Below the pieces are notes generated by a model, which worked only from the letters and a program-made list of their open reading frames with translations, ran no database searches and was not told the origin of the DNA. 64,000 nt of DNA, taken from the NCBI GenBank assembly GCA_000165345.1, contig CM000434.1, positions 32,001 to 96,000 of the forward strand. Reading direction: 5' to 3'. The position numbers and the translations under genes were made by a program. This document shows, piece after piece, positions 14,052 to 60,927 of the stretch (within the stretch, counting starts at the first letter, position 1; each line of letters opens with the position of its first letter).

Positions 14052-15068
14052 TTAAAATTCGAATTCGCCAATTAAAGTATCAAAGGGGATTTCTTGATTT
14101 GCAATTTGAGCGATTCCATTTCTCAGTTTGACTCTCCATTTTCCTTTTTGGTTTTTTTTTCTGGTATATGGTCTGATAACTTTTTCAAAATGTCCAATAA
14201 TGACGTCACTGCATTCAGGTTCTTCATCGTCTAAGTCAGATACATTCTCAAGATCTGATCCAGGGTCAGATAAAATTTCTTCATCAAAATGATCATTGTT
14301 TCCACTGATCTGACCATTTGTTGTACTATTTTGGTTGTTTGACTTTGATTTATTTTGTTCCTGAAAATTATCTGTTAGGTTATCTTTAGTACTTTCGCTT
14401 TCGCTTGGTGCAACTACATCCCAAGATGCGTCTCCAAACTCATCATCCTCGAATTCATCATTATTATTATTTTCATTTCCATTAGAGTTTTGACATTTTT
14501 CAGTATTGAATTGTTCACAAGTTGTATTTTGTTTTTCTTCTAAAAAAGCATTTCTTTCTTTACCTTCTTCTTCTTCCTTTTCTATGTCTTTTTCATCTTC
14601 ATTTCCAACATATTTTGAATCTGAATCATCTAACTTTGATTTCTTAGAAACCATCTTACAAAAATCATATTCAATATTTAACTCGTTAACATTTCTCATT
14701 TCTTTAGAAGATATTATTGGAGTTGGAATACTTTGAAGTGATCCCTCACTAAATCTTTTATTATTAATTCGATTGTCACAAACTATGATTTCATTACTGT
14801 TAAACTCGCTAATACTATCATTATGATGATTATTAATATTGCCATAATTAATATTATTACTAATTTCACTAATATCGGATTTTTTCGGAACTGATTCAAT
14901 TTTAACAGGTAAAACCCCATCCAATTTAGGAGCAATAACTTCCATCTCTGTCGGTACCCATTCTTGATTACGATCAGATTTCTCATCTTTTGTTACACCC
15001 AAACACAAATCATTTAACTTTGAAATCCACCTGAGTTTTAATTGTTCAAGCATCTCAGGGGTTTGCAA
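14052..15068 (-). CDS. Hypothetical acidic, Asn-rich protein.
   Basis: 338-aa ORF. The middle is a low-complexity N/E/D/S tract (NSNGNENNNNDEFEDDEF...). No recognisable domain. Confidence 0.45.
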   Translation of the reverse strand: MQTPEMLEQLKLRWISKLNDLCLGVTKDEKSDRNQEWVPTEMEVIAPKLDGVLPVKIESVPKKSDISEISNNINYGNINNHHNDSISEFNSNEIIVCDNRINNKRFSEGSLQSIPTPIISSKEMRNVNELNIEYDFCKMVSKKSKLDDSDSKYVGNEDEKDIEKEEEEGKERNAFLEEKQNTTCEQFNTEKCQNSNGNENNNNDEFEDDEFGDASWDVVAPSESESTKDNLTDNFQEQNKSKSNNQNSTTNGQISGNNDHFDEEILSDPGSDLENVSDLDDEEPECSDVIIGHFEKVIRPYTRKKNQKGKWRVKLRNGIAQIANQEIPFDTLIGEFEF

Positions 15069-15504: not shown

Positions 15505-16414
15505 AAACTCCATTAAATTCTATAAATTAATCACATTTAAAAACTAGAGAAAATATTGAATTTGAAGTAAAATCAGCCTAAACTGCTTTGTAGAAAATTT
15601 TATAGGAAATAAAGATGATATGAAGGTTGCTATTATTATTACTATTATAATCATTGCTACTGTTTCTAAAAAAAAATTTTAAAAAACATCTTTTCTTCAA
15701 TTTTACTAAACTTGTATCATTTCTTAATCTTAAACTTCATTGAATTATTTATTATTCAAATTCTTATCATCAAATTTGAGTTTATAAATTCATTATTTAG
15801 AAATTACTTCTAAAAAACAAGTTCCCAAAATTTGCACTTTTGCACTTTTTTAAATTAGCCCCCACTGCCCCCCACTATAATTGACTGGTAGGCTTACCAC
15901 ACAAATAATTTGGCATGCAATATTAAATATTTATAATAGTTAAACTTAGAATATGAAAATATAACCATTTCTGAGAATTTTATAAATATCATTAATAGAA
16001 AGAAAATTTTGAATTATTTTAATAAATTCAAGTATTATTTAAATAATAAAAAAACATACATTTACCTTATTTTATATTAAATTTAAGTTCAGTTGAGTTA
16101 ATTGGAATTGAAATCATTAATTAATATCAAGCAATAAAAAATAATAAGAGCTCATCTTTATTTCTTGGAGCTAATACTATAAATACTGAATATTAAAATT
16201 ATTAAATAGGTATTTTGTTTTACATTAAAGTCTGATAATATATATAAATATTATATTATAAATATATTTATATTATATATAATATATTCCCAGTAGATTC
16301 TAAAATTCAATTAATAAAGATAAACATTTCCAACCTTAATTTAAAACCAACCCCTTTATTAATATAAATATTATTATGTAAACACATCATTTATATTAAT
16401 TGAAATCAATAAAA

Positions 16415-18244
16415 ATGAACTTTGAAAAATCTTCGAACTCATTAGAAACTATCAACTACAATACTGAAGAAATCAATAATTCCAATTCATATAGTCAAAG
16501 TTGTAATACTATAGCAGAAGAACAGTTGGCAATTTTAGATTCAAATCTCTCAAAATATTCGGATATATTTAAAATCCAATCAAAAAGTGTTTCTCAATCA
16601 GAAAGTGAACATGAAGATATCTTCCAAAAATTCACAAATGATGAAAAAAATAAAAAGTTTCTTGAAATTAAAGTTTGGGAAGAAACTAGAATTGAAAAAT
16701 ACCAACATTTTATTAGTGCTATTGATCCAATTTTTACTGAACTTTCAAATTCTATCTCTCAAGCAATGCAAACTAATAAAGATTTGGCTACAATTCTACA
16801 ACAAAAAACCAAGTACTGGAATAGTTACTCAAAGAATCTGGAACTAATTTCTCAATATGGATCAAAAAATGGACATAGTAATACTCATATTCATAGTTCA
16901 AGTAATCCATGTCCATCTTGCTCTTCTTCTGCAAAGTCTTGCTCTTGCTCGTGTCCATTAGTTACTTTTTCATCATCAAATAGCTTCCTAATACAATTAA
17001 AATCAGGAGAACTAAAGAACCAATATAATCAAGATGAAACTAATAATGAGAGTTTACATGAAATTATTATGAACCAGGAACTTAAAGATTCGAATAATAA
17101 TAATAATAATAATAATAATAGTAATAATAATGAGTATTCAATTTCAAGTAATTTACTGAGTTCTATTTCAAGTCAGAAAGTCTGGCCAAATTTACTTGTA
17201 AACTTTGGAAGATACGAATCAACTTTTCTTAAAAAACTTTGTCAAAGTATTGAAACTGATGTAGTAAATGGACATCTTTCATGGATATCTAAAAGATATC
17301 TAAATAATGCTCAATCATACTTAAAGGCATTACGTATTGCCAGAAAAGAATTTGAAACATTTATTAATAATGCACAACAATCTTGGAATAAATATGATGA
17401 CGCATTTAAAAAATCACAAAGACTTAGTTTAGATGTAAATTATTCAATGAAAAATAGTAAACCATGTGATACTTGGTATTTTGATCAAATCTATAGACAT
17501 AATATTAATAAGTTTATTCAAGCCCAAACAAAATTTTTTGAAACAATACTATTAACTATTGATAATCTGATGGAGCTTGAAAATTGGAGAGCAACTTCTG
17601 TTAAACTTACATTTAATTACTTCTTGGTTAAACAAAATGAACTTTTTGAATTTCTTCAAAAACTTGGAAACTCTATGATTGATTATATCAATGATCAAAA
17701 CAAACAAAACTCTTTATTTCAAGACCACTATGCAAACTTTGATATTATTACTTCAATTCCTGGTCTAAGACCACCCCCAATACCTATTTCTAATGAAGCA
17801 AATTTCTCAAAAATTTCTCAATCGCTCTCAAAATGTCCTATTTTACAACAAATTTCAACTCTAATGAATTATAATAATCTTCCAAAATCTTCACTAATTA
17901 TTTATCACGGGCATGTTGAAATTTTTAAAAGAAAGATCTTCCTTGGGCAATGGCAATCTGCTTATATAATACTCACAAAAGATAAATTCCTTTATCTTCT
18001 TAATCCAAGAGATGATATTGAAATGGAGGAGCTTCTAAAGCATGATGAAAAACCTATCTGGTCTTTTTTTATTGGATCTCAAGATATATCTATAGAACTT
18101 AATGAAAAGAGAGGAAAAAGATGCCTTAGTATTAGATTTAAAAAACAGAAATTCTTCACCAAGAAAATGACCATTAGATGTTCAAATGAAGAAGAGTGTA
18201 GTAAATGGATGAATTATCTTAATTCGGTAATCCCTCCATATTAA
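16415..18244 (+). CDS. Hypothetical protein with a C-terminal PH-like domain, a possible BAR-like N-terminal region, and a poly-Asn insert.
   Basis: The C-terminus LIIYHGHVEIFKRKIFLGQWQSAYIILTKDKFLYLL...KRCLSIRFKKQKFFTKKMTIRCSNEEECSKWMNYLNSV fits a PH fold, including the terminal W. There is an N12 run in the middle. Confidence 0.5.
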   Translation: MNFEKSSNSLETINYNTEEINNSNSYSQSCNTIAEEQLAILDSNLSKYSDIFKIQSKSVSQSESEHEDIFQKFTNDEKNKKFLEIKVWEETRIEKYQHFISAIDPIFTELSNSISQAMQTNKDLATILQQKTKYWNSYSKNLELISQYGSKNGHSNTHIHSSSNPCPSCSSSAKSCSCSCPLVTFSSSNSFLIQLKSGELKNQYNQDETNNESLHEIIMNQELKDSNNNNNNNNNSNNNEYSISSNLLSSISSQKVWPNLLVNFGRYESTFLKKLCQSIETDVVNGHLSWISKRYLNNAQSYLKALRIARKEFETFINNAQQSWNKYDDAFKKSQRLSLDVNYSMKNSKPCDTWYFDQIYRHNINKFIQAQTKFFETILLTIDNLMELENWRATSVKLTFNYFLVKQNELFEFLQKLGNSMIDYINDQNKQNSLFQDHYANFDIITSIPGLRPPPIPISNEANFSKISQSLSKCPILQQISTLMNYNNLPKSSLIIYHGHVEIFKRKIFLGQWQSAYIILTKDKFLYLLNPRDDIEMEELLKHDEKPIWSFFIGSQDISIELNEKRGKRCLSIRFKKQKFFTKKMTIRCSNEEECSKWMNYLNSVIPPY

Positions 18245-19847: not shown

Positions 19848-20130
19848 TTTTCTTTTAAACAAAAATTTTAAAAAAATTTTTCTTTATTGTGAATTCTTTC
19901 TTTATAACTAGATTTTATTAACAAATTAATTTAATTAAGACTGTTTAATACTAGTCAAAATTAAATTTATTTTAAAAATTAAATAAAAAAAAATTATTTT
20001 TATTTTTTTATTATTGTTATTTTATTTATTTAAGAAAATAATCAATAATAAAAAAAGTGACATAAATTTGTTTTATAACTACCATGTATCTGGTGTACTT
20101 CCTCTTATGACTAATTTCACATCATTTTTA

Positions 20131-20234
20131 TCCACATGAATGCATGCATGTAACGTGCACATCAAAATTTGCATACCGGTATTATGTTTTTTTTTGTTTA
20201 ATATTACTAATAATTACTAATTTGTCCACATGAA
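20131..20234. promoter_or_regulatory. Composite motif cluster: TCCACATGAA...CATGCATG...ACGTG...ATACCGGT plus a second TCCACATGAA.
   Basis: TCCACATGAA at 20131-20140 and 20225-20234, and ATACCGGT at 20173-20180. The cluster is about 280-390 bp upstream of the His/Cys gene start at 19847. The same bipartite motif recurs at four other loci. Confidence 0.4.
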
Positions 20235-20447
20235 TATTAATTATTATTGTTATTTAAATTAATAGTTACTAATATGAAATAATATACAAATGACGAATAA
20301 AAATTAATAGTAAAATTTGTAATTATTAGTAATGAATTAGTAATTATAATTAATTAAAAATAAAAAAAAAAAAAATACAAATTGAAATTTAAAGAGGAAA
20401 ATAAATACTGATAATGAGATTATATATATATCAATACAAATTTATTT

Positions 20448-23400
20448 TTAATTATTTTCCTTTTGAGGGTTATTCTTATCTAAATTAATGTTATTTAAAA
20501 ATATTCTTAATAACAATGGCATAGTCCATAAAGGTTTAATTAAATCTACTTCATGACACATTTTTTGTGAATAAGAAGGAACCACAGTTCTTCCAAATGA
20601 TTTCATTGAAAATATTCTTGTATTTGTAATGTTATATTTATCAATATTTTCAATTTTAAAATTACTAGTATTAAAGTAATCAAAATCAGGATATAAGTTA
20701 TCTTCAGTTGTGTTTTTAATTTCTAAATTCTCATCTTTCACATTATGTTCGGTAGATTCATGATTTATTGTATTATTTAATTCATTTATGAAAATTTCAT
20801 TATTAGATTGGTCCAACAATATTGAATTATTTTGATATTTTTCATCAATTTGTTGAACTTCTGGATTAGAATTATTTTTCATCTTTTCAGAAATTAATGA
20901 ATATAACTTAGTAATATTATATTCAAAAGGTCTGAATACATTTTCTGGAAATTTTGGAGGGCAATAGTAGTGAGTAAAAACTGTCTGCTTTGAAACACAA
21001 CGTGGGGGAGCCTTTCTAAAATGCTCTGGTGGCAAGAGTAATAAGGCTTCCTCATCTAACTTATAGCCTTTTGGACATTCAATGGTAAAATCTGTATAAC
21101 CCTTCATTTTACACGTATTAGTTGCTACTAATACGGTATTTTCAGGGCAAGATAGATATGGTTTTGCTGTAATGACCTTCAAACAAATAATTTTAATAAC
21201 ATAATCTGTTTTACCAATTATTGCATCATATAAACTTATTGGTGAAATAGGTAACTTTTTTTTCCCCTCTACATTTCGATTTATTAAATTAATTGATTCC
21301 AAATCTTCTATTAGTTGACGCCTTATAACTTCTTCAGAATTATTCTCATTACTTGTTTCATTTTTGATATTTGAATGCTCAATATTTGGAACTTGATTCA
21401 AAGTAATGAATTCAGTTATTACATTCTTTTTTGTACTTCCAAATGAAGGAATAATCGTTTCATTTTTCTCTAAATTTGTTTCCGTTTCATTCAACATACT
21501 AATATCAATGTTTTCCGAATCCATATCCTGAATATATTCAGGAAATAATGTATTCGAGATAGCAAGAGAATTATCAATTACTTCACTTGGATTAAATAAA
21601 GATTCTTTATCAATATTATCTATATCTTCCTTTGTTACAATATGAATTCCAGTTTTCTCAAAGTAATTTAATGGTTCTCTTAATGATATGAATGGAATCT
21701 CTTCTTTTGTTGTACACTTTGGTTGTAATGGCACTTTCATTACTTGTATACAAGTATCAAAAGGATTAATGAATTCGTGCCGGTATACTATAGGAGGATC
21801 ATTACCATTTGAAATATAAGCGTCATAAGAAACCGTACCTTTTGGGCATTTATAATCTACTACTACAACATCTTTGTACTCACAATAAGGTCTTGGACCT
21901 TTTTCAAACATCCATGAATGATTATAATCATATTTAAGGCTAAATGTACTATTTTGACAGAATGGAGCACCAATACCATTGTACTTAACCTCATCAGTTT
22001 CTTTCTTAAAGCATTTTATTTTTGTTTTAAAGTTTTGGAATTTTTTTGTAATTGATTTGCTTTGTATTCCCGATTCTGAATCATTCACTTTCCTTGTCAT
22101 TATTGGTTCTTCTTGGATAATCGGAGCATAATATTTATTAAAGTTTTCACTTGCTTCATTTAATTTTTCTTTTCTGTGTTCAACATCAGAAATATCCTTT
22201 TGGAAAAAATCCTCTTCTAATTGTGCTGTATATCCTTCCGGGCATTCATATTCTTTCACTACTTGATAAGCCATAATACATGTTTGCAAGTCATAGTAAA
22301 CACTTCCTTCAGCACATCCTGGAAATCCAGGTGCAAAAGTTTCGATTACACAAGTCTTTCTTGGTTCATTAAATACGAATGGCTCGTCACATTTTGGCAC
22401 TGAAGGCAAATACTTTCTTTGTTTAACATGGCAGCCTCCTCCACCTCTATGTGAACCCCATAACTTTGAGTGGGAATAGCTTAAAGGGCAAAATGCGACA
22501 GAGTCTGCATAAGTAATTGAAACACAACTTTTTATTTCATGGTCATACACTGAATTCAGGCCATTTGAAGGACAAATACCAATAATATCTAGTTCTGCTC
22601 CTGTTGGTCTGCTACAATAGGTTGCATTGTATGGCTGAATATTCAATAATGAGAATGTAGGTAGCATATAATCTTCCCTAGATATATTCAAATTTTTAAT
22701 AAGCTCATCTATTAGCATCAATTCTGCACTATCTCTTTCATTTGCGCATAGATTATATGTATTCTCATCCTTAGTATTCAAATTACTTAATACCATTTTT
22801 GGTATTAAAGTTATCAAGCTCCAAAATCCTTCAATTGAAAATCTTACCTTATTTTTCAGATTAATGTTATAATCATTGATTTTACTATTATTCCCACTAA
22901 AGTCTATTTCTTTCCAAGAATCTGAGTTTAATGCAGTATAATTCAACCAAAATTCACTATTATTCGACAATTTCTGATAATCGTATTCTGGGATTGATTT
23001 CCTCCATGGAGTAATATCCATTGGAACTCTATAAATACATTGTAATAAGCCATTCAAGGACCTGATTACTACATTACTTAATTGAGGAGCCAATTTTTCC
23101 AATAAATTATCGTCATCTGTATTTTCTTTTGTCTGATTTAATAATTTGGTTTCATTCAAATTACTTGTCGCATTACTTAAGTTTTCTTCATTCTCATTTT
23201 CTTTAATTTTTAATTCATTAGTACTTTCCACGTCATCTTTTTTATCCACATCAAATTCTTGTAATGCATGCATATTATCGAGAGGGGTCTGTAGATTCAA
23301 ATTTTGAAGCTCATTAATAGAGTTTGAATCATTTAAAAAAATTGAATTATTGTTAAATTGATAGGTTTCTGTGTTATTAATATTTATATCAGTATTAGTT

Positions 23401-23999: not shown

Positions 24000-24417
24000 A
24001 AAAGCTCATTTAATTTGTTAAAAAAAAAAAAATAAAATAAAATAATACCTTAAAAAACCTTAAACATAAATATATTAAACAAACAAATATCTTTAAATTT
24101 CCTCAAATATTTTAGGAAATAATTATAATAAATTTTTTAATGATAAATAATTCCTTTGTTTACTTTTTATTATATATAAATACATATATTAAGATAATTT
24201 TTACTTGCAAAAAAAAAAATAATTCAACGAATTCTATAAAATTTTCATCTTTAATTCATATCAAAAATAAATTTTAATTATAATATTATTTGACAATTTT
24301 TATTGAGTATTTTCTTCTTAATACAATTTTTAATAAAGGTTAATTTTTATTCTGTGTGCATTAAAAGTTGTTTTATATGCTCGGATTATAGTCGAAATTA
24401 TAAAAAAAATAATGAGT

Positions 24418-32169: not shown

Positions 32170-32404
32170 AGATTTGATTTAATTTAATAATTTTTAAAAT
32201 TCATATATATTCTTTTTTTAATTCTTCATATTTTATTTATTTTTTTCATAAAATTTTATTCTTTGAATAATTTCTCTTTTTTTTCTTTAAATCTTTATGA
32301 ATTATTTTTACTTTAATTTCATTTTTACATTATTATAATCTTATTTGTATTTCAACAAATAATTAAAATTAAAATTCATCAATGCAAAAATTATTTATAT
32401 TTTA

Positions 32405-32473
32405 TCCACATGAAATAATTTTTTATATACCGGTCAAAAATTTACACGTAAAATTGTATTTTTCAATACCGGT
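32405..32473. promoter_or_regulatory. Composite motif TCCACATGAA-N12-ATACCGGT, followed by ACACGTAA and a second ATACCGGT.
   Basis: 32405-32414, 32427-32434 and 32466-32473. It lies about 330-400 bp upstream of the DGAT2-like ATG at 32806. Confidence 0.4.
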
Positions 32474-34228: not shown

Positions 34229-37200
34229 TCAATAAATATCACCAAAATCTATATTCAATAAACGAGAATGTCTTCCATAGCCATACTCATCTTCAATTCC
34301 TTTCTTCTTTATTGCATTCATTGATATACTGGTAGTCTTTCTGTTCTCATTATTATTATTATTATTATTATTACTTGTAATATTACCACAAGATCTTATT
34401 ATATCTTCATCATTTGGTATCTTTCTTTGAAGAGAAACTATGTGATCACCTAAAGATAAAGCAATACCTTGTGTCCTACTTCTTATGCGAACTGTTCCTG
34501 TTATCATCATTTTTGGCTCCTTTTCTACTCCTTCTCTTTGATTATTACTAACCAATTGTTTTTCTAAACTTATATTAACTAGAGCATCCTCTCCAAAAAT
34601 ACTTCTTGCATACAAATTTGTAGCAAAGAAACTTGACTTCTTATCCATCATTATTAAATGATTTGAATTATCACTCTCATTATTATTATCATTATTATTA
34701 TTACTAGTATTAGTATTACTACTCTTATAAGTACCGATATTTATACCGGTACCATTACCACCAATCATCATCATCATCATACTTTCAATACTACTATAAC
34801 CTACCAATGATAATTTAGTTTCTTTGATCAAATATTTTAAAAATTGTATAAAAGAGTCACAACTTGTATGTATTGGAATTTTATTTTCCCATTCAAATTC
34901 TGACCATAATTGTCTAAATAATGGACAAGGAATATTTGAATTAGTAATGAAATCAATCAAATCTATACTAATTTCATTCAATACCACAATATCATTCAAA
35001 CCTAATAATTGAGATGATGATGATGATACTGCTCCGGATCCTATTCCTCCTCCTAATCCATCATTTTGAGAATTTTTGGTTTGAAATGTAACAAAACCAA
35101 ACAATATTCCAGTCTCAATAGATTTTACTTGTGCAACAGAATAAACATGAATAGTATTTCCAGGATCTAAATGATTAATATTTTGTGGTTTTTCTATTAC
35201 TCTTAAATTTCCATAAGGATATAATTCAATTTGTACGTTTTGAACTGCTTTATAACTTTGATTAGTTACTATCAATTCTAATAATACATCTTGATGTTGT
35301 ACTTGAAGTATTGCTTCTATGTAAATTGGATCACTTAAACCTGTTATTGAATATATTCTTTTAGATGTATTAGATTGATCAATACTTCCTTTTTTTCCAT
35401 TATTCGAATTTTTTATATTTAAAGGATCCATTACCATACTATCATCAAAACATTCAAATTCATCATCATCATCATTAATCTGTGTTATATCCACATTATT
35501 TGAAAATACTTTTTCTCTAAATTGTCTAAAATTAACAACATTATATGGAAATCTTCTTGAGGAATTCTTATTTAAACGTTTATTCTCTTTAAATAACTCT
35601 CTCAACTTCATTCCACCATTAATTCCTCCTCCAAGTTCAATTTCATTCCCTTCAATTCCTTGAAACTTTGGAAATAATTTCCTTCTTAACATGATTGTTC
35701 TTTTACTTAATCTAATCAATTCCAAATCTTTAAGATCTTTTTCATTTCCTAATTCTTCTTCATTCTTTTTCAATTGATCCAAATCATTGTAAATTGATTT
35801 AAGTAAAATATAACAATGACTTAATCTATGAGTTGNATCNTNCNNNANNCCNCCANNNNTNTGNTCATTTAAACAATNNNNTAANNAGCANNCNNTANTN
35901 TNAANANNCTTNTTAAANGTANNTANNNCTAAATNCAANATATTTTCTTCNTNCTTATTTTTTCCTTGTTCATCTTTAATTCCAATATTATTAGAAAAAC
36001 ATAATAATTTTATTAATGAAACTCCAATACTTGCAATTAAAAGTAAATCTTCATCTCTAATAATAATATTTCTCAAGTTATTAGTAGTAGTAACTCCAAT
36101 ATTATAACAATTTCCACCTTCAATACCTGTTGAAGAAGAATTCAATTGGGAATTACTAGTTCCTAATAAATTTGTAGAATTCATATTATTATTAGCACCA
36201 TAATATCCATCAACATTACATTCCAAATCCTGAGTTGCATATGTTCCATCNTCCANNNNNNCNNNTNNNGTCNACTNNNTTTGTCATGNATAAGTATTTC
36301 CTACTCCTACCCCTCCTCTTTTAGCAATCTTATCATTATCAATAAAACTATCATTATTAGAATTATTATTATTATCATTATAATCATAATCATCATCATC
36401 ATTGTAATTATCATTTCCCATTAAACTTTGACTAGCTCTTCTATTTGGATGATTTCTTATTTTAATAGGTAAAGGTTCCAAAGAATTGTAAATTACATTA
36501 ATAATATCAATAATCTTTCTTTTATCATTTCCATATTCACATTCACTTAAAATCCATAAACAAGTTCTTAATGGTCTACTGAATTGTATTAATGATAAAT
36601 GAATTATTAATTGATCAACAATTTCATATTGATATTCTGAATAATTAACAACCATTTCTCTAAGAAATTGAATAATTTCATTAACAATAATAGGATTTGA
36701 ATTGGATAAAAATGTCATCATTGAATTAATCATAGGCTTAAAAGTAATTTTATGGTATTTTCTTGTAATCTCATGTAATGCTTTAATTAATATTAACTGA
36801 TAATTTTGAAATTGTTGAAAATCAGATAATTTCCCTCCTCCATAATTCATTGTTCTTAATCCACCAAAAGCTTCTGCTCCTCCCATTCCAAAACTATTAT
36901 CATCATTATTATTATAGTAATTAAAGTCAATATCTGCAGTAAAATGATAAGTTTGATTAAATTCATGATTACCAAATCCAGCAATATTATGATGATGATG
37001 ATGAACAGAGTTATTATTACTACTTCCATTATCATTAACATTATTATTATTATTATTATTATTACTATTGTTATTACTATTAAACTTATAATTTTGAAGT
37101 GAAATATCTTGTAAATGTTTTAATAGAAATTGAAATATATCCAAACAATTATTTTTAGTTAATAATGATGACAACACAATTTGAATAACTTTAATCTGTA

Positions 37201-41059: not shown

Positions 41060-42530
41060 CTATAATAAATTTCTTCTAATATAAATATTTTCCGCCTCAT
41101 TAATATTTTCTAATCCAAATTTATAATGATAATTATCAATATTTTGTTCTTTTTTAATAATTTTTGTTGAATTGTTATTAACTTTTGTTCTTGTATTATT
41201 AATATTTTCTGTAATATTCTGAACTAAACCCATTCCATTAAATATAATTTGTTCATTATAATAGTTATTATTATCATACTCAAAATTAGGATTTCCATAA
41301 TAATTATTATAATCATCAACATAATATCCAGCTTGATTATTCTGATTATAATATGATTGTTGTATATTTGTATTGATTTTATAAGAATCACTTTCTGGTA
41401 TTACTACTGATCCTAAACTAAATGGAACATATGGTGGTAAATTAATACCTACTTTTCTTAATGATAATATTTGATAACCATTTGAAGGTGAATATATATC
41501 AATCCTATTTGAACCAAATCTTAATGCACCAAAGAAACCAAGTTGAACAAATCTTGCAGAAGTTGACATTGAATGTTTTTCATCTTTATATGTTTTATCC
41601 ATAAATAATGTTGTACATAATCTTATTGGAGATATTAATGATGCATCATCAAACCAATAAGCTCTTAACCATTTATATATTGTTGACTTTACTGGCCAAT
41701 TAATTGGTTTTGTTATATACATAATATGTACTTTAACTCCATCAGGTCTTAACCAATCACCACTTAAATCATGTTTATCAAATAACCCTAGATATTTTAA
41801 GAAATTAATTGAAAAAAGAAAAGTAAAATAAAATAAAATAAAAAAATGAATAATAAACTTACATGATTGATTAGCCTTTGATAAAGTTGTATCAGCCCAT
41901 CTTGTTCTTAATGTTATTGTTCTTCCATGTTGATCAACAAAACCTTCAGCATTTTCTAATAAAACAGCAGTATTATCATTTGCATCCAAAAATAATCTTG
42001 AAAATAATCCATTAGCAGCTTGAGTTATACCATTAACAGTAAATATTGAACCTGTAATATATTTGGTAGCTAATACTGCATCAGTTCTATCAAACCTAAA
42101 TAAAAACTCTTCATTAGTTAATGGACTTAAAATTGGTTGTACTCTTGATGATTCTTCTCCTGTATATAATTGCCAATTTCCAGATAAATCCCATGTACAA
42201 CCTCTATATGGATTTCCTGATAATGAAATCCCTGTTGCAACATCTACTGCACAATGACATGTTGGCTGTTTTCCAATAATAAAACAATTTGCTCCAGGAC
42301 CACATTTTGCATTTTGACCTTCTTGTTCATTACATGCTAAGATTTAATATATAAAATAAAATCATTAAATTTTTAAGAAAAATTAAAGATTTATTGACTT
42401 ACTTTGATATATTTCTGTTACATACTGTGAATTTATTCTGCTTAATCCTGAAAATAATAAATTTATTAATATAAGATAAATATAAAATTGTGTTTTTGAT
42501 TTTATTAAAATATCAAACATTTCATTATGA
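41060..42530 (-). CDS. Secreted EGF-like-domain protein with a Tyr/Asn-rich C-terminus. It has 3 exons: complement(42413..42530, 41863..42346, 41060..41787).
   Basis: Exon 1 encodes the signal peptide MFDILIKSKTQFYIYLILINLLFSGLS..., donor CAAA|GTAAGT. Exon 2 encodes the EGF-like CNEQEGQNAKCGPGANCFIIGKQPTCHC. The 75-nt intron is GTAAGT...ATCTAG. Exon 3 matches the ORF-track protein LFDKHDLSGDWLRPDG.... The ORF track shows only the last exon. Confidence 0.65.
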
Positions 42531-43253: not shown

Positions 43254-45065
43254 ATGAATGAAATTATGTTAGAAGAAATGACTGAGCAAAATATTGATAA
43301 TTCTGGAGAATTATCAGTTTCAGAAATTTCTGGTGTGGAATATATTTTTTTCACAAAAAATGATGAAGCCAATATAAAATTTAGATTAGACAAAATGAGT
43401 ATGGATGATAAGTTATTGGAGGAATATTTGAATGATAAGAAGAAAATATTTATGAATGAGAAGATTCTGAATATATACCAAGGTGGGAGAGTTCTTGTAG
43501 GTATAATATTAAAGAAAGAATATAAATTATGTGATATAATTTTTGACTTGTCAAATTCTGAAAAACAATCGGTATTGAGTAATTTTATATGGGAAGGACA
43601 GTACCAAGTATTAGTAACCAAAGAAAATAATTACCTTGAAATTTTTAATGATGGAAAGGAAGGGAATAATTTAATGAATTTAGATGATGGATCATATATA
43701 AATTTGATAGGTATTTATAATTTAAAGAGTATAGAATGTAACTTGTATATTTTTCAATGTTCAATTATTATTAAACCACAGTATTGGAATGATTTATTAA
43801 ATTTTGATATTTTGATAAAGTATCATCAAAATGACATGTTTGAAAATTCAATATTAAATGATGAAATTAATGAGAGTTGTAATGAGATTGGTAAAAATGA
43901 ATTAAATTATGGTAGTCCTTTTGGTGATTTATTAGTATTGAATGAATTTTCAGATTCAAAAATATATTCTTATTCACTTTCTAAGCCAATATTTATTAAA
44001 GTTCCAATAATAATTTCAAATTATTTTCTTCAAGAAAGTTCTCAGATTTTATTTATTGAGATTTTAAATATTGGTGAAATTTCAGATTCAATATTGATTT
44101 ATGATATATTTAGTCATAATTTGAAACTAAATGGTAATAGCCCACTTGAACTTCCTTTTACATTAGGTAATAATCAGTCATTAGGATGTTCATTAATTAG
44201 AGTAGGTGGGAAAAAATTCTTAAATCAATAAAATATTGTGAAAAGATGAAATGATTCATTTACACCCATATATTCCATTTTTATCAAATGGAAATCAAAA
44301 CAATTTAATTCAAAATTAATTCTTACTCAATTTGCTCTTCAAATCAATTTTGATCAGAGAGTTGATATTATAAATTCAAGAGAAGAGAACCAAATCAATT
44401 CAATTAATGTTAATAAACATGAAAACAGTAATGATCATGATAATATCAATTCTTCATCTTTCTCATCATCATCTTCTGCAGTTTCTTCTTATTTATTTAG
44501 TCCAAGTTCACCACAAGCTTCTGTTCAATCAATTTGCTCTCCATTCACTCAAGAAGTCTGTTACTCTTCAAAATCTAATCTTGAAGAAAATTCAAGTAAT
44601 TGTAATAACAACTTGGAAGTTTATAGCAATAATGATAGTATAATACAAAAAAATGAGAATGATTTGGAAATAGAATCAAACTATAACTTTAAAGCAACAT
44701 GTACTTTTGATCGAATTTCAAAATACCCAGGTGAAACTGTTTATTTACTTATTGAAATATTTCCTATTGAAAGAGATAAATCATTAAATTTACTTGTAAC
44801 TGTTGAGTATGATCAATATTCACCCATTGTTCCTTTGTACGTTTCAATGCCAATAAATTATTTCCCAGAACCTAACTCTTCATCATATTCACAAAATATT
44901 TATGAAAATCCAACTTTATTGTATCCACTTAAAATTTGTAATCCTGGTATTTATAAATGTCCAAATATAACTATTTACGATTTTTCCACAAAATCTAATT
45001 ATACGATTAAAAAATTACCTTTATTGGTTTGCGAATCTCAACCAAACTGTAATAGTTCACTTTAA
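43254..45065 (+). CDS. Hypothetical protein. It probably has two exons, 43254-44201 and 44358-45065, joined across a 156-nt intron.
   Basis: The ORF at 43254-44231 is followed by an 800-nt open frame (44259-45065) in the same phase that has no ATG. A GTAGGT donor follows codon AGA at 44202 and a YAG acceptor lies at 44357. The intron length is 3n, and its in-frame stops would be removed by splicing. Confidence 0.45.
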
Positions 45066-45316
45066 AAAAAAGACTAATTAATCACTTCAAACTTTAAAAT
45101 AGTATAATGAAATTAAATGTTTTAAAAATTATATAACTTTTAATTCTGTATATATTTTCAAATTTAATTTAATAAAAAAAAAATCTCAACATTTTGATCT
45201 CTTTATTTTGATTCACTGCCATTTTTATCGTTTTCCCAATTTTTATTTTCATGCAAAAAAAACAATAAATATTTATTATTTTTTTTTTTGCATGCCAAAA
45301 AGAAATTTCAATTTAT

Positions 45317-45345
45317 TCATGTGGACAATATTACATAATACCGGT
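45317..45345. promoter_or_regulatory. Composite motif TTCATGTGGA-N11-ATACCGGT-GCATGC, with the first half inverted.
   Basis: It lies about 200 bp upstream of the ATG at 45540 and is flanked by CATGCAAAAAAAA and TGCATGCAAAAA repeats. Confidence 0.4.
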
Positions 45346-45539
45346 GCATGCAAAAAAAAAAAAAAAATGCAAAAATGCAAATGAGTGATATGAAAAGGAA
45401 AATAATTAAATAATAAAAAAAAATAACAATAATTTAAAAGTCCCCTTTTTTAATATTAAAAGAGGAAAGAAATAAAATATCATTTTTTAGATTGATATAG
45501 ATAATTTTCTAGGAAAGATATTTCAAGTAGAAAACAAAG

Positions 45540-47624: not shown

Positions 47625-50051
47625 ATGTGGTATTTTGGAATATTCACAGCTTTATTATCATCCATTTTGGGTGGATTAGGCGATAATTTGATTAGATTGA
47701 GTTTTACTTTAGAAGAAGAGTTAAACCATAAAGAAAGAAGACCAGTTATTTTAAGACCAATTTGGATATTAGGTGTACTTTTTTCGTGTATATTAAATGC
47801 AATATTAATAATAATTAGTTTAAATTTTGCATCAGCAATGATAGTAACTCCATTTTCTGGCTTACATATATTTTGGAGTATTATATTTAGTAAGTATATT
47901 TTAAATGAAGAAATAAAATCAAGGCATTATAAAGGTACAGGTTTGGTAATTTTTGGATTATTATTTATTATATTATTTGGTATCAAAGATGTACCAGTTT
48001 ATAATGTACATGAACTCGGTATATTATATTCACAACCAAAATTTGTTTTATATTGCTTTGTAAATATTTCATTTATATTAATTTGTACATATTTATCATT
48101 TTTTGGACTGGATGGGACTGAAGAAAATAAATACAAGAATGAAATAAACATAAATAATACATTATCAAATAATAAAATTGAAAATAATAATATTGAGCAA
48201 AATGATAATAATATTAATAGAAAATCAATTAAAGATATTATTATTTTAAATAAAAATACTTTACATTTAAAAATTTCGAATTTGAGAGATTATTTAAGTA
48301 AAAGTAAATATATCGAATACGAAAAGAATGTTTCTGTAATGGATAACTCAGATTTAAATTATAATTCTAATGAAAATGTAATTAGAACAATGGATATAAA
48401 AAATGATAATATTATAGGTGATGGATATATGAATAGTAATTCTGATATTAAATATGGATTTGGAAGAGAGAATAGTATATATGAAAGTAATAATGTGGGA
48501 TTTTATAATAAAATATTGAATTATATTAATAAGATAGAAAAAAGAATTGATATAATTAATTCATTATTTATTGAATTAACAAAAGGATTCCCAAGAGTTG
48601 AGATATCAATACCAATTAAAAGATTTTGTATTTGTTCAGTATCAGGTCTTATAGGAGGATATACAAATGTTCTTGTACAGAATTTGATACAAATAATATT
48701 AATAGATGGAGTATATACTCTAATTCATAAATTAACATATCAACTTTTAATTATGATACTTATTACAGGCTCAATACAATGGGCATTTTGGAATACTGCA
48801 TTATCAAAATATCAAGCAATTTTTGTTGTACCTATAGTTAATTCAGTATTAATTGCATCCAGTGGGTTTTGTAATTTAATGCTTTATTATGACAATCAAT
48901 ACGTATCAAATTCACTTTTGGGGATATTTTTTAAGATGAATTTTCTACTTGGACAATCTCTTATTTTAGTTGGGATTTATATTATAAGCAGAGCAAATAG
49001 AACCATAGTAAATGAAAATAATAACTTGGATAATAATGATATTAATAGTAATTCAGTTAATGAAGAGAATATTTTTGATTTTAGTGAAAATTCTCAAACA
49101 TCGGATCCAATAAATAATAAACTTTATTTATATTTAGAATCAAAATTTTCTAATTTTGCTGATATTACCAGTTTTTTTAAAGCTAAAAAAGAGAAAATAA
49201 GTTCTTCTTTGGAAAGCCTTCTTGGACTATCTAGAAACCAAAATTTATCCAATAATCATTCAACTTCTTCGTTACCTAACACTAAATATTTGAAAAATAA
49301 TAATCAATTCTATATTAATAATACTATTATTCTTCCTCAAGAAGAATATGTTGATGGTCAATCTACATGCATTCATGTGGATAATTGTCAGGCGGCAACT
49401 GCCAATACCGGTATTCAAGTAGAAAAATCTCAAATTAATGTGGAAAAAAATTATTTATCATCCAATAATAATATTAACCATTTAAATGACCAAGAAGAAA
49501 TGGATATTGTAAGTCAGCAAATTATTATGCCAATAAATACAGAGTATTCTTTGAATACTTTAGGACAACAAGAAAATATTACTGATACTGACTATAACAA
49601 AAAATATGGAATTGAGTTAGAATCATATGTTTTGGATGAGTATGATATTGATGATTTTGAGATTCCTTTTTCAAATCAAGATTATACAGGAAGAGAAGCA
49701 ATGATTTTACAGAATATGGGAGGAAATTATCAATATGAAGATTATGTCAATGAACAAATAATTAATACTAGTTCAATGCTTAGTTTTGGGGATGATATAT
49801 TGGAAGAAAATATTACACAGAATTATTATGAAAGCGACTTAATGGCAACTAAAGAAACTGAATATAATGAGGATTTTACTACTAATAATCATAGTCATGC
49901 AGTCAATTCAGGTTTCAGTCATAATATTCAAAGCAATGAAACTGAAGTTAATATAACAACTAGTGATTTAAAGTTTGATTGTAATCCAAGTCTTTCAACA
50001 TGTTCAACTAATTCTACTGTACTAAATTCCTTTATTACCAATATTTTATAA
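47625..50051 (+). CDS. NIPA-family (DUF803) Mg2+ transporter with a long Asn-rich central insert and C-terminal extension.
   Basis: The N-terminal half AMIVTPFSGLHIFWSIIFSKYILNEEI is comparable to the NIPA block [27 protein letters not shown]. The second half ...CSVSGLIGGYTNVLVQNL...IQWAFWNTALSKYQAIFVVPIVNSVL has the NIPA topology. The last about 350 aa are low-complexity. Confidence 0.7.
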   Translation: MWYFGIFTALLSSILGGLGDNLIRLSFTLEEELNHKERRPVILRPIWILGVLFSCILNAILIIISLNFASAMIVTPFSGLHIFWSIIFSKYILNEEIKSRHYKGTGLVIFGLLFIILFGIKDVPVYNVHELGILYSQPKFVLYCFVNISFILICTYLSFFGLDGTEENKYKNEININNTLSNNKIENNNIEQNDNNINRKSIKDIIILNKNTLHLKISNLRDYLSKSKYIEYEKNVSVMDNSDLNYNSNENVIRTMDIKNDNIIGDGYMNSNSDIKYGFGRENSIYESNNVGFYNKILNYINKIEKRIDIINSLFIELTKGFPRVEISIPIKRFCICSVSGLIGGYTNVLVQNLIQIILIDGVYTLIHKLTYQLLIMILITGSIQWAFWNTALSKYQAIFVVPIVNSVLIASSGFCNLMLYYDNQYVSNSLLGIFFKMNFLLGQSLILVGIYIISRANRTIVNENNNLDNNDINSNSVNEENIFDFSENSQTSDPINNKLYLYLESKFSNFADITSFFKAKKEKISSSLESLLGLSRNQNLSNNHSTSSLPNTKYLKNNNQFYINNTIILPQEEYVDGQSTCIHVDNCQAATANTGIQVEKSQINVEKNYLSSNNNINHLNDQEEMDIVSQQIIMPINTEYSLNTLGQQENITDTDYNKKYGIELESYVLDEYDIDDFEIPFSNQDYTGREAMILQNMGGNYQYEDYVNEQIINTSSMLSFGDDILEENITQNYYESDLMATKETEYNEDFTTNNHSHAVNSGFSHNIQSNETEVNITTSDLKFDCNPSLSTCSTNSTVLNSFITNIL

Positions 50052-52639: not shown

Positions 52640-53930
52640 CATGAAAAATTAAANGANNCTNTTGATATGATATGCATCGCAAATCATCATCTATTTGATC
52701 GTTTGTATTAATATTATTACTTTGAATAAATCTAGTAATATTATATTCAGTACATGTAATAAATTCTGTACCTTTAATATCCCAAGATATACAATTTGTT
52801 GGATAATTTGTTTGATTAATTATTGAATAAATTAATATTAATTTACCTCTTTTTTTCTCATATAAATCCCATCTCCATATACCTATCCAAGGTATACCAT
52901 TTATATCTTTAAATACTTGATTTATATCATCTTGCTCAGTTTTATTATCGTTATCATCATTATCATTATTATTATTATTATTGGTATTGGTATTAATATT
53001 ATTGGTATTATTTGTATTATTATTAATTATATTATTATTATTATTATTATTATTATTTATATGGTTTNGGGTATTATTTAGAGTATTATTTTGAATATTA
53101 TCGCCATTTATACCTATTATTATTACTCATTATATATTATTATTATTATTATTTAATTATTATTATTATCACTATAATTACCATTTTTGTTGAGCATTAT
53201 TATTATTACTAAAATAAATAAAAGAATCATGGCTTGTAGCAAGTATTNCATAATTTCTTGAGTAATTTGGACACCATTTAACAATCTAATACATAATTTC
53301 TTAATAATCCTGTTAATACATCATCCTCATTTTTATTATTATTTCGAGTATTAATATCTTTTGTATCATATAAACAATCCCATGTAGAAAATAATTCATT
53401 AGATTTTTTATCAATATTATCATCATTATTTATTTGATTATTATTAATAACATTATTACTATATTTGATCATCCATAATAGAATTTAATTTAATAAAAAT
53501 ACTTATCATACCATTATTTGAACCAATAGCAATCAAATTCATATTATATATATCATTTTCAATAATTGTTAAATTATTAATAAATGAAAATGATGTCATT
53601 TGATAACTATTGATTGATATATTACATGTAAATTGTTCTATGATTGACCAATTATGAAATAATGGTGAATCTTGACAAGAATATATTCTAAAATGACCAT
53701 CTTTTGTAAATACTATCAATGATATATTGATTGTTGATGTATTGATTGTTAATTTATTATTATTTTCATAATTTAATATAAAACTTGAATTAATTATTGT
53801 ATTTCTTGAATCTCTTAATCTTGCTGTCATATTACAAATTCCACCCAATTTATTAATATTATTATCAATATTATCGATATTATTTTGAGTATTATTATCA
53901 TTATTATTTAATAATGATTGTGAGGATGTA
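52640..53930 (-). CDS. Hypothetical protein, possibly WD-repeat-like. Its N-terminus is lost in the assembly gap.
   Basis: The minus-strand ORFs 53459-53848 and 53278-53472, plus a further open frame 52640-52960 (...WIGIWRWDLYEKKRGKLILIYSIINQ...CISWDIKGTEF...), read towards the N-gap. Scattered 'n' bases lie at 52645, 53068 and 53248. Confidence 0.3.
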
Positions 53931-53990
53931 TTTTCAATTGGTAATTTTAATATATCTCTATAATTTTTATTTAATAACCATNNNNNNNNN

Positions 53991-56481
53991 NNNNNNNNNN
54001 NNNNNNNNNNNNNNNNNNNNNNNNNNNNNNNNNNNNNNNNNNNNNNNNNNNNNNNNNNNNNNNNNNNNNNNNNNNNNNNNNNNNNNNNNNNNNNNNNNNN
54101 NNNNNNNNNNNNNNNNNNNNNNNNNNNNNNNNNNNNNNNNNNNNNNNNNNNNNNNNNNNNNNNNNNNNNNNNNNNNNNNNNNNNNNNNNNNNNNNNNNNN
54201 NNNNNNNNNNNNNNNNNNNNNNNNNNNNNNNNNNNNNNNNNNNNNNNNNNNNNNNNNNNNNNNNNNNNNNNNNNNNNNNNNNNNNNNNNNNNNNNNNNNN
54301 NNNNNNNNNNNNNNNNNNNNNNNNNNNNNNNNNNNNNNNNNNNNNNNNNNNNNNNNNNNNNNNNNNNNNNNNNNNNNNNNNNNNNNNNNNNNNNNNNNNN
54401 NNNNNNNNNNNNNNNNNNNNNNNNNNNNNNNNNNNNNNNNNNNNNNNNNNNNNNNNNNNNNNNNNNNNNNNNNNNNNNNNNNNNNNNNNNNNNNNNNNNN
54501 NNNNNNNNNNNNNNNNNNNNNNNNNNNNNNNNNNNNNNNNNNNNNNNNNNNNNNNNNNNNNNNNNNNNNNNNNNNNNNNNNNNNNNNNNNNNNNNNNNNN
54601 NNNNNNNNNNNNNNNNNNNNNNNNNNNNNNNNNNNNNNNNNNNNNNNNNNNNNNNNNNNNNNNNNNNNNNNNNNNNNNNNNNNNNNNNNNNNNNNNNNNN
54701 NNNNNNNNNNNNNNNNNNNNNNNNNNNNNNNNNNNNNNNNNNNNNNNNNNNNNNNNNNNNNNNNNNNNNNNNNNNNNNNNNNNNNNNNNNNNNNNNNNNN
54801 NNNNNNNNNNNNNNNNNNNNNNNNNNNNNNNNNNNNNNNNNNNNNNNNNNNNNNNNNNNNNNNNNNNNNNNNNNNNNNNNNNNNNNNNNNNNNNNNNNNN
54901 NNNNNNNNNNNNNNNNNNNNNNNNNNNNNNNNNNNNNNNNNNNNNNNNNNNNNNNNNNNNNNNNNNNNNNNNNNNNNNNNNNNNNNNNNNNNNNNNNNNN
55001 NNNNNNNNNNNNNNNNNNNNNNNNNNNNNNNNNNNNNNNNNNNNNNNNNNNNNNNNNNNNNNNNNNNNNNNNNNNNNNNNNNNNNNNNNNNNNNNNNNNN
55101 NNNNNNNNNNNNNNNNNNNNNNNNNNNNNNNNNNNNNNNNNNNNNNNNNNNNNNNNNNNNNNNNNNNNNNNNNNNNNNNNNNNNNNNNNNNNNNNNNNNN
55201 NNNNNNNNNNNNNNNNNNNNNNNNNNNNNNNNNNNNNNNNNNNNNNNNNNNNNNNNNNNNNNNNNNNNNNNNNNNNNNNNNNNNNNNNNNNNNNNNNNNN
55301 NNNNNNNNNNNNNNNNNNNNNNNNNNNNNNNNNNNNNNNNNNNNNNNNNNNNNNNNNNNNNNNNNNNNNNNNNNNNNNNNNNNNNNNNNNNNNNNNNNNN
55401 NNNNNNNNNNNNNNNNNNNNNNNNNNNNNNNNNNNNNNNNNNNNNNNNNNNNNNNNNNNNNNNNNNNNNNNNNNNNNNNNNNNNNNNNNNNNNNNNNNNN
55501 NNNNNNNNNNNNNNNNNNNNNNNNNNNNNNNNNNNNNNNNNNNNNNNNNNNNNNNNNNNNNNNNNNNNNNNNNNNNNNNNNNNNNNNNNNNNNNNNNNNN
55601 NNNNNNNNNNNNNNNNNNNNNNNNNNNNNNNNNNNNNNNNNNNNNNNNNNNNNNNNNNNNNNNNNNNNNNNNNNNNNNNNNNNNNNNNNNNNNNNNNNNN
55701 NNNNNNNNNNNNNNNNNNNNNNNNNNNNNNNNNNNNNNNNNNNNNNNNNNNNNNNNNNNNNNNNNNNNNNNNNNNNNNNNNNNNNNNNNNNNNNNNNNNN
55801 NNNNNNNNNNNNNNNNNNNNNNNNNNNNNNNNNNNNNNNNNNNNNNNNNNNNNNNNNNNNNNNNNNNNNNNNNNNNNNNNNNNNNNNNNNNNNNNNNNNN
55901 NNNNNNNNNNNNNNNNNNNNNNNNNNNNNNNNNNNNNNNNNNNNNNNNNNNNNNNNNNNNNNNNNNNNNNNNNNNNNNNNNNNNNNNNNNNNNNNNNNNN
56001 NNNNNNNNNNNNNNNNNNNNNNNNNNNNNNNNNNNNNNNNNNNNNNNNNNNNNNNNNNNNNNNNNNNNNNNNNNNNNNNNNNNNNNNNNNNNNNNNNNNN
56101 NNNNNNNNNNNNNNNNNNNNNNNNNNNNNNNNNNNNNNNNNNNNNNNNNNNNNNNNNNNNNNNNNNNNNNNNNNNNNNNNNNNNNNNNNNNNNNNNNNNN
56201 NNNNNNNNNNNNNNNNNNNNNNNNNNNNNNNNNNNNNNNNNNNNNNNNNNNNNNNNNNNNNNNNNNNNNNNNNNNNNNNNNNNNNNNNNNNNNNNNNNNN
56301 NNNNNNNNNNNNNNNNNNNNNNNNNNNNNNNNNNNNNNNNNNNNNNNNNNNNNNNNNNNNNNNNNNNNNNNNNNNNNNNNNNNNNNNNNNNNNNNNNNNN
56401 NNNNNNNNNNNNNNNNNNNNNNNNNNNNNNNNNNNNNNNNNNNNNNNNNNNNNNNNNNNNNNNNNNNNNNNNNNNNNNNNN
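53991..56481. other. Assembly gap of about 2.5 kb of N, flanked by low-quality sequence with scattered n at 56482-56960.
   Basis: A direct run of n. The ORFs at 53914-56511 and 53967-56504 in the track are poly-X artefacts of this gap. Confidence 0.99.
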
Positions 56482-57177
56482 AANTNCCCAGGNAAAATTC
56501 CCAAATTTTAAAAAATTTTTAAAAAAGGATTANTNAAAAANTATTTNCTTNCCCNTTTCNTCCCCGGGGAAATCNAGGAAAAANTCNAAATCTCTTTGGA
56601 AAAGGAAANTTTAACCTNTCGANGGTATCCCCTTTTTTTCCCNTTTTTANNCGNNTNNAAAAAAAAAAGNTTANAACCATTATANCCCNTCCTTGGCCCT
56701 TTAAANTAAAATTANNGCTTTAAAAANTNNNAAAATTTTTTTTTAAAANAANAATTTTNGACNTTAATTNATATTAANAAAANNAAAATTCCCCCATTGG
56801 GGCNCAAATTCTNTTTNTTTTTTTTTTGGTTATATTGATAGTGATAANTNGCATGNTTATTNCAATTTTGNCAAGTAATTTAATAAATTAATATTTTAAT
56901 TTTGATTAATCATCTAAATTAATAANTTCTTTTTGGTNCTNGTTGATTATNACTTGATTCATATTTAGTATGNCTTTTATGATTACTATTTCTATGCTTA
57001 GAATTCTGATGATAATCTTCTGGACTATTATCATGATGTTTATGATGACTACGATGATTATTACTATGACCATGATGAGTATGGTGATTATGATGATAAT
57101 GATTATAATGACTTTCTGATCTATTACTTGATATAGAATCATCATGAATATGTTTCTTTCTATTATTTGAATGATTA

Positions 57178-60377: not shown

Positions 60378-60876
60378 TTTAAATTTAATTTAACTTTCTC
60401 TGTTTGAATCCAATTCTATCCTTTATTTAAATAAACTTTATTTGATTTAACTTTTTTTTTTTAATTAGTAATTAACTTATCAATACTTCATAATTTAAAT
60501 CTTGATTTGATTTTATTTTTAGTCCCACAATTATCAAAATATTCTGAAATGCACCTTTAAAAATTAAAATTAAACTTTTTTTTTCTTTTAAAAAAAATTA
60601 ATTCCCTTAACTACGATTCATATTATTCCAGCTTTTTTTTTCAATCAAATTTTTTTTGATTGCACACAAATCAAAATGTGCTTACCTTTAATATCTTTTC
60701 ATTCATTTTTTTTCACCAATTTTAGTAATATATCGTATTAAAATTATTATTAATTAAAAATACTGATGTAATCAAAATTTAACATTAATTTTTTCTAGCT
60801 TAATTTAAAATAAAATTATTGTAAATAACTTTAATTAATTTTACACGTCATTTTATTACATGCATGTAATTTTTTT

Positions 60877-60927
60877 TCCACATGAGAATAATAACAAAAT
60901 TTAATGAAAAAATTGGAAAATACCGGT
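60877..60927. promoter_or_regulatory. Composite motif TCCACATGAG-N33-ATACCGGT, preceded by ACACGTCA and CATGCATG.
   Basis: 60877-60886 and 60920-60927. It lies about 500 bp upstream of the start (60377) of the minus-strand coiled-coil gene. Confidence 0.4.

Follow-up and report, generated by a model that had tools for sequence, protein, structure and literature searches.

In the sexual stages of Plasmodium, short conserved motifs, some of them palindromic, lie upstream of female genes and are read by ApiAP2 proteins (AP2-G, AP2-FG, and their partners), either singly or in complexes. Without sex and the formation of oocysts, Cryptosporidium can neither keep up an infection nor be transmitted. 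The published cis-code of its female stage consists of one motif, TGCATG(T/C)(G/A), here TGCATGYR or AP2_1 (TGCATGCA), which was described in macrogamont promoters and is bound by the AP2 protein cgd2_3490 (Oberstaller et al., 2013, 2014; Hasan et al., 2024, PMC11078545). In addition, an "unknown motif" A[T/A]G[T/A]GGA.A was reported upstream of the Class II (late) COWP genes (Oberstaller, Joseph & Kissinger, 2013, PMC3734150). Here, we analyzed a 64-kb stretch of C. parvum chromosome 6 (the window), in which an earlier note, made from the letters alone, had pointed to a 10-mer that is paired with a palindrome-containing 8-mer at five places. The species and chromosome were established by exact protein look-ups, which led us to reject a Dictyostelium origin suggested by the composition.

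Paired motifs in the window

Refined, the first of the two sequences, motif A, has the consensus (T/G)CATGTGGA(C/T)AA, whereas motif B is the palindrome ATACCGGTAT, of which often just one half, CCGGTAT, is intact. Across the whole 64-kb window, the sequence ATACCGGT occurs at seven sites (20173, 32427, 32466, 34743, 45338, 49405, and 60920), three of which (20173, 49405, and 60920) carry the full palindrome. Counted by strand, there are 10 matches compared with 0.13 expected, a number reached by none of 100 shuffles. The core of motif A, CCACATGA, has six sites, on the plus strand at 20132, 20226, 32406, and 60878 and on the minus strand at 45317 and 49373, compared with 0.97 expected. Each of the six has an ACCGGT no more than 60 nt away, whereas at most four did so in 200,000 random placements. 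Recurrent pairing of A and B at five loci beyond chance, as the earlier note had claimed, is thus confirmed. ACCGGT itself occurs seven times, compared with 0.87 expected; this count had been given correctly, but all seven occurrences, rather than six, are ATACCGGT. Two further details required correction, namely the composition of the window, which is about 74% rather than roughly 80% A+T, and the motif copy that had been placed at 60877, where the actual sequence is TCCACATGAG. The ATACCGGT at 34743 is a lone match within a coding ORF and stands outside the pairing pattern. The window sequence is of draft quality, with a gap of 2,500 Ns (53982–56481) that exceeds the true length, as seen in complete C. 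parvum assemblies, by about 2.27 kb, and with scattered Ns at 35836–36289, 52654–53248, and 56484–56973.

Four of the five pairs are intergenic and lie about 194–550 nt before an annotated ATG, in agreement with the placement upstream of gene starts that had been proposed (Table 1). The gene that had been described as a His/Cys secreted protein was identified by exact protein look-up as oocyst wall protein 8 (COWP8, cgd6_200), and it is this identity that gives the motif module its meaning. Its module is located 284–387 nt before the annotated ATG. DGAT2 (cgd6_260) and the coiled-coil protein gene (cgd6_390) were identified by locating published qPCR primers in the window (Mauzy, 2012), and the multi-exon secreted protein gene (cgd6_313) by matching a published promoter sequence to positions 44540–45538. 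The module of DGAT2 is found 332–400 nt, and that of cgd6_313 194–222 nt, before the annotated ATG (about 45540 for the latter). For cgd6_390 the distance to the annotated ATG is about 500–550 nt. On the minus strand at 60684–60704, ATGAATGAAAAGATATTAAAG followed by gtaagc resembles an unannotated first exon of cgd6_390 with its splice donor; if this exon is real, the module would be situated about 150–220 nt from the start rather than about 500 nt. The fifth pair lies in the gene NIPA (cgd6_320). The claim that this copy is contained in the coding tail was correct, as 49372/49405 fall within the 808-aa NIPA coding sequence in two complete assemblies.

Table 1. Positions of the motifs at the five loci of the window, with their readings and conservation.
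Locus	Feature	Position	Strand	Sequence and conservation
COWP8	Motif A, proximal	20129–20141	−	Reads TTCATGTGGATAA toward the gene, directly after CATGCATGCA; TCATGTGGA invariant in five species
COWP8	AP2_1/TGCATGYR site TGCATGCATG	20141–20150		TGCATGCA invariant in five species
COWP8	Motif B palindrome ATACCGGTAT	20173–20182		AATACCGGTATG, the longest invariant block of the five-species alignment
COWP8	Motif A, distal	20223–20235	−	TTCATGTGGACAA toward the gene
DGAT2	Motif A	32403–32415	+	TATCCACATGAAA, reversed relative to the gene; kept in C. meleagridis, C. ubiquitum, and C. canis
DGAT2	Motif B half-palindrome ATACCGGT, first copy	32427–32434		Kept in four species
DGAT2	ACGT-core TTACACGTAA, between the two B copies	32441–32450		ACACGTAA kept in four species
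DGAT2	Motif B, second copy	32466–32473		Kept in four species
cgd6_313	Motif A	45316–45328	+	TTCATGTGGACAA toward the gene; kept in C. ubiquitum and C. canis
cgd6_313	Motif B and TGCATGCA, one-base overlap (ATACCGGTGCATGCA)	45338–45352		Identical in C. canis
NIPA	Intragenic copy in the coding tail	49366–49414	+	CATGCA-TTCATGTGGATAA-N3-CAGGCGGCAACTGCC-A-ATACCGGTAT; CAGGCGGCAACTGCC is E2F-like
cgd6_390	ACGT-core ACGTGTAA (gene orientation)	60846–60853	−	ACGTGT kept in C. ubiquitum and C. canis
cgd6_390	AP2_1-type site CATGCATG	60860–60867		Kept in C. ubiquitum and C. canis
cgd6_390	Motif A	60875–60887	−	CTCATGTGGAAAA toward the gene; TGTGGA kept in C. ubiquitum and C. canis
cgd6_390	Motif B palindrome ATACCGGTAT	60920–60929		ATACCGG kept in C. 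ubiquitum, lost in C. canis

The pair does not stand alone. TGCATGC or CATGCATG, as well as ACACGT or ACGTGT, were found beside it, as had been noted earlier. An AP2_1-type site is present within or beside four of the five modules and is kept across species together with A and B, and an ACGT-core element (ACACGTAA/ACGTGTAA) is often part of the module. The latter element (TTACACGTAA/ACGTGTAA) also recurs in many promoters of the S6 set of Hasan et al. (2024) and is kept across species; possibly, it is a bZIP-type site.

Downstream genes and published macrogamont promoters

Late-expressed genes lie downstream of all four intergenic pairs. By qPCR, DGAT2 is up at least 10-fold at 36–72 h and cgd6_390 peaks at 72 h (Mauzy, 2012), a period in which the sexual stages appear. 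The other two are published female-gamete genes: COWP8 heads the female-specific list S3 of Hasan et al. (2024) with a log2FC of 13.5, and cgd6_313 is among the 65 co-regulated macrogamont genes of the same study. Among the entries of S3 that the analysis covered, DGAT2 and cgd6_390 appear neither as female- nor as asexual-specific, so that only two of the four downstream genes are independently classed as female; female specificity of DGAT2 and cgd6_390 is a prediction. A search for homologues with COWP8 retrieved orthologues only.

The 64-kb stretch is rich in female genes in general. In addition to COWP8 and cgd6_313 it contains COWP9, the upstream neighbor of COWP8 (identified by exact protein look-up), as well as cgd6_190 (16400–18244, log2FC 5.6) and cgd6_300 (41060–41989, log2FC 3.1), both of which are listed as female-specific. 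Within the window, exact copies of A or B are absent upstream of female-specific cgd6_190, COWP9, and cgd6_300; for COWP9, the upstream region 24000–24417 contains none of the motifs. Motif A together with TGCATGCA does occur about 730–755 nt into the COWP9 coding sequence (23243–23272), and this motif A is kept in C. meleagridis and C. ubiquitum. It could be a coding coincidence (CAT GTG GAT encodes His-Val-Asp) or an internal element.

For the genome at large, we used the macrogamont promoters of supplementary file S6 of Hasan et al. (2024), namely 64 of the sequences for its 65 genes from all chromosomes, each cut at about 390 nt, so that all counts are lower bounds. The transcribed set reproduces the counts of a text search, including 11 occurrences of ACCGGT. 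In an unbiased scan of 7-mers against dinucleotide shuffles, the known AP2 site TGCATGC ranked first (at least 96 observed versus 2.4 expected, in 35 promoters), and the motif B word ATACCGG/CCGGTAT ranked second (at least 24 versus 0.40, in 17 promoters). Words of motif A were found at rank 6 (CATGTGG, at least 21 versus 0.70, in 17 promoters), rank 9 (TGTGGAC, at least 15 versus 0.49, in 14 promoters), and rank 11 (ATGTGGA, at least 25 versus 1.8, in 18 promoters), and the intermediate ranks were mostly occupied by other TGCATG-type words. The ACGT-core word ACACGTA was observed at least 8 times compared with 0.6 expected.

With the full promoters of COWP8 and cgd6_313 restored, motif A (ATGTGGA) is present in at least 19 of the 64 promoters, motif B (CCGGTAT) in at least 18, and both in at least 12 (Fisher p = 1.2e-4), with a nearest distance between A and B of 9–84 nt, start to start, in the 12 promoters that have both. 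Motif A faces the gene in 19 of 26 cases (p = 0.014), and the response to a differentiation inhibitor was stronger for A- or B-bearing promoters (p = 0.002). Altogether, only some of the 64 macrogamont promoters, about 39%, are marked by the module. The promoter of cgd8_920 closely repeats the COWP8 layout, with CAATGTGGACAA-N44-ATACCGGTAT-N12-GCATGTGGACAA, and variants of B reading ATACCGTTG (equivalent to CAACGGTAT) are found in the promoters of cgd7_1730 and cgd1_1510. Specificity relative to non-female promoters was tested weakly, against a small background that comprised the window and about 165 kb of orthologous loci. When metagenomes were scanned for A-N(0–30)-B, more than 120 scattered single matches came up, which is the estimated chance level for a collection of this size.

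Conservation across Cryptosporidium

The orthologous regions of C. meleagridis, C. ubiquitum, C. canis, C. bovis, C. muris, C. felis, and C. xiaoi were compared, for which synteny is complete genus-wide. In the COWP8 promoter, 28% of the columns of the five-species alignment are invariant, and the longest invariant blocks are AATACCGGTATG, TCATGTGGA, and TGCATGCA, that is, pieces of B, A, and the AP2 site. C. parvum, C. meleagridis, C. canis, and C. felis share the order A, B, TGCATGCATGCA, A, including the distal A, which has the opposite orientation in C. ubiquitum. The COWP8 promoters of C. bovis and C. xiaoi retain TGCATGCATGCA-N4-TGTGGA and a distal CGGTAT, and that of C. muris retains TGCATGCATG and CCGGTAT in a different order. 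Just downstream of the module, on the minus strand at 20095–20128, there is a block aaaatgatgtgaaattagtcataagaggaagtacaccaga that C. parvum, C. meleagridis, C. ubiquitum, and C. canis have largely in common; it may correspond to the core promoter or to the beginning of the 5' leader.

The promoter of DGAT2 keeps A, B, ACACGTAA, and B in four species. Within the 23-kb loci compared for C. meleagridis, C. ubiquitum, and C. canis, the COWP8 and DGAT2 promoters are the only places with motif B. The modules of cgd6_313 and cgd6_390 are likewise conserved, with single losses of B; at cgd6_313, B has decayed to ATACCAGT in C. ubiquitum, where TGCATGCA is retained. In the C. muris locus, the full palindrome ATACCGGTAT is found at 14105–14114 in the divergent ATG6 | G-patch intergenic region, and ACCGGTATAA at 22834 past a PH-domain gene. 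These sites indicate that the motif is genus-wide, with different positions in the gastric species.

The copy in the coding tail of NIPA combines four promoter-type motifs in about 50 nt. It is base-for-base identical in C. ubiquitum, where all 13 third positions of the motif codons are unchanged compared with a baseline of 0.76 (p ~0.03). In C. canis the amino acids are altered, and AGGCGCCAAA and ACCGGTATA are present. A 13-mer of this copy, GGCAGTTGCCGCC, also occurs in the cgd1_1400 promoter. The conservation of the NIPA copy may be due to coding constraint. Possibly, the embedded module drives a female-specific internal or non-coding transcript.

A probable combinatorial promoter module and its alternatives

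The motifs are non-random, they are enriched and co-occur in macrogamont promoters, and they are conserved at orthologous promoters. Over-representation relative to shuffles, conservation amid diverged flanks, and flexible spacing and orientation are the characteristics of a cis-regulatory module. The late genes downstream of the pairs, the macrogamont promoters on other chromosomes, and the phylogenetic footprint all favor the shared cis-regulatory module of co-regulated developmental genes that had been one of two proposals in the earlier note. Probably, therefore, each of the five loci holds a copy of one combinatorial promoter module that serves female-gamete (macrogamont) and oocyst-building genes.

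Such a module would be composed of separate short sites, namely the directional motif A, which usually faces the gene, the palindrome B, the AP2 site TGCATGCA, and, often, the ACGT-core. Sequence-specific factors of developing females would bind these candidate sites in a stretch of about 100 bp located about 100–400 bp upstream of the start codon and would jointly activate transcription. Because B is a palindrome, it would most likely be read by a dimer, whereas A would most likely be read by a monomer or a single domain beside a TGCATGCA-binding AP2 protein (cgd2_3490 or AP2-F). Protein binding, the identity of the binders, and activation rather than repression are inferred. Other candidate factors, besides cgd2_3490, are cgd8_810, the early female zinc-finger protein cgd4_1360, and the female-specific Myb-like/CHY zinc-finger protein cgd2_3460.

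The co-occurrence of A and B, which is far above independence, would also be expected if they were the halves of one bipartite site for a single multi-domain protein that needs both, such as AP2-F. This protein has three AP2 domains, with motifs published for D1 and D3 and none for D2, and A or B is present in six of the seven AP2-F-dependent genes named in the 2025 review compared with 19 of the 57 other promoters (p = 0.012). However, the spacing extends from a one-base overlap (cgd7_5130) up to 84 nt, and even at the DGAT2 promoter it is 12 nt in C. parvum versus 39 nt in C. canis; the order and orientation of A relative to B vary as well, and 13 of the 25 motif-bearing promoters carry just one of the two motifs. 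A single rigid bipartite site is hard to reconcile with spacing and order that vary in this way. Furthermore, ablation of AP2-F left the oocyst wall genes unchanged, although COWP8 carries a perfect module, and AP2-F alone is thus insufficient to explain the module. Taken together, a single bipartite site appears unlikely.

Some motif copies could lie in transcribed sequence, and translational repression as well as maternal mRNA granules have been documented in female Cryptosporidium. The motifs might, therefore, act at the RNA level, as parts of the 5' leaders of maternal mRNAs that are recognized by an RNA-binding protein for storage or translational repression, and the strand bias of A (19 to 7) would fit such a role. 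Yet B is a DNA palindrome whose half-sites occur either way round, 7 of the 26 A sites face away from the gene, as does A at DGAT2 in four species, and the divergent genes cgd8_4290 and cgd8_4300 share one intergenic region with the motifs, all of which makes an RNA-level role unlikely. In addition, the predicted RNA folds are unremarkable (z-scores from −1.7 to +1.0), and the published F-RBP motif, CAMCAACAR, is unrelated and is found in coding sequences. We consider action at the RNA level very improbable.

All four intergenic copies are located between same-strand genes, 200–400 nt past the upstream stop codon, as would also be the case for 3' ends of the upstream genes or for boundary elements between tandem genes. 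Against this explanation, the sequences in which the motifs are enriched had been selected by the expression of the downstream gene, the upstream neighbors (TatD, cgd6_310, and Fip1) are unrelated housekeeping-type genes, A faces the downstream gene, and the motifs are present in the divergent cgd8_4290/4300 promoter, which has no upstream 3' end at all; elements of this kind are scarcely plausible. The second proposal of the earlier note, that the pairs are termini or remnants of a small dispersed mobile element (or members of a non-coding RNA gene family), accounts for the recurrence of short motifs at several loci and for the palindromic nature of B, but can practically be dismissed, because the five AT-rich loci are alike in their motifs only (mean column identity 43%) and lack flanking terminal repeats or duplications and are thus not copies of a mobile element, because spacing, order, and orientation vary, because orthologous sites are found in species with no more than 81–90% identity between their MCM6 proteins, and because Rfam and tRNA searches of the window gave no match and the folds have nothing unusual. 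A structured non-coding RNA gene was rejected on the latter two grounds.

The combinatorial promoter module that we favor bears on the regulation of female development. Among the genes marked by the elements are several with the strongest female specificity, such as COWP8 and the crystalloid-body CCp genes; the elements are also testable targets for promoter dissection and factor finding and could aid the design of stage-specific reporters or conditional promoters. More tentatively, ATACCGGTAT might be the site of a genus-wide regulator of the late-female and oocyst-building program and would then form, together with CATGTGGAYAA and TGCATGCA, the defining cis-code of that program. If so, the motif would be a direct handle on the missing regulators of female development, by means of DNA-affinity capture and promoter mutagenesis.

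As to the families of such regulators, the plant DRE/CRT element TACCGACAT is a site of AP2/ERF-domain proteins, and the c-Myb site is YAACGG. Motif B (TACCGGTAT) agrees with the plant DRE at seven of nine positions, and its half-site TACCGG is one base away from the Myb site TAACGG; we take both to be resemblances only. They suggest the AP2 and Myb families as the first candidates.

Comparison with the described motifs separates the components of the module. As a string, motif A (ATGTGGA[C/T]A) matches the "unknown motif" of Oberstaller et al. (2013): ATGTGGA-N-A, or a sequence close to it, is found in all six copies of the window and at the 26 sites of the macrogamont promoters, and two copies lie in the module of COWP8, a gene that was placed in Class II in that paper. 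The motif had been obtained with MEME from nine COWP promoters only, and neither a factor nor a link to sex was given; that paper contains no wider female set, no pairing with ATACCGGTAT, and no conservation analysis, and the motif is absent from the motif table of the 2025 review. Motif B, in contrast, has apparently not been described before. Neither ATACCGGTAT nor the A-B pairing is described in that table, in the motif papers of 2013 and 2014, in the papers on female development of 2024 and 2026, or in the results of a text search; the literature text search for ACCGGT returned primers and an unrelated Drosophila motif, AAATACCGGT, only.

Motif B lacks TGCAT and is unrelated to TGCATGYR. 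Motif A has no TGCAT core in most sites (TCATGTGGA, CAATGTGGA); GC precedes A at 8 of the 26 sites, making GCATGTGG, and these eight sites, which read GCATGTGGA, overlap with the TGCATGTG variant of TGCATGYR. Beside motif A, TGCATGCA forms a separate invariant block. The E2F/DP core [A/T][C/G]GCGC[G/C][A/T] is absent from A and B; some of the same promoters additionally contain E2F-like GGCGCC/GGCGG sites apart from the two motifs.

The promoter codes of the Plasmodium sexual stages employ motifs that differ from A and B, and, compared with Plasmodium, Cryptosporidium has fewer AP2 proteins and makes use of E2F/DP as well. TGCATGYR shares with A and B both the promoters and the developmental program, but Hasan et al. 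(2024) gave the top DREME motif alone, and the signal that ranks second in the published promoter sets is a motif that has apparently not been described. With A and B, a female cis-code that so far consists of TGCATGYR would gain two more conserved elements.
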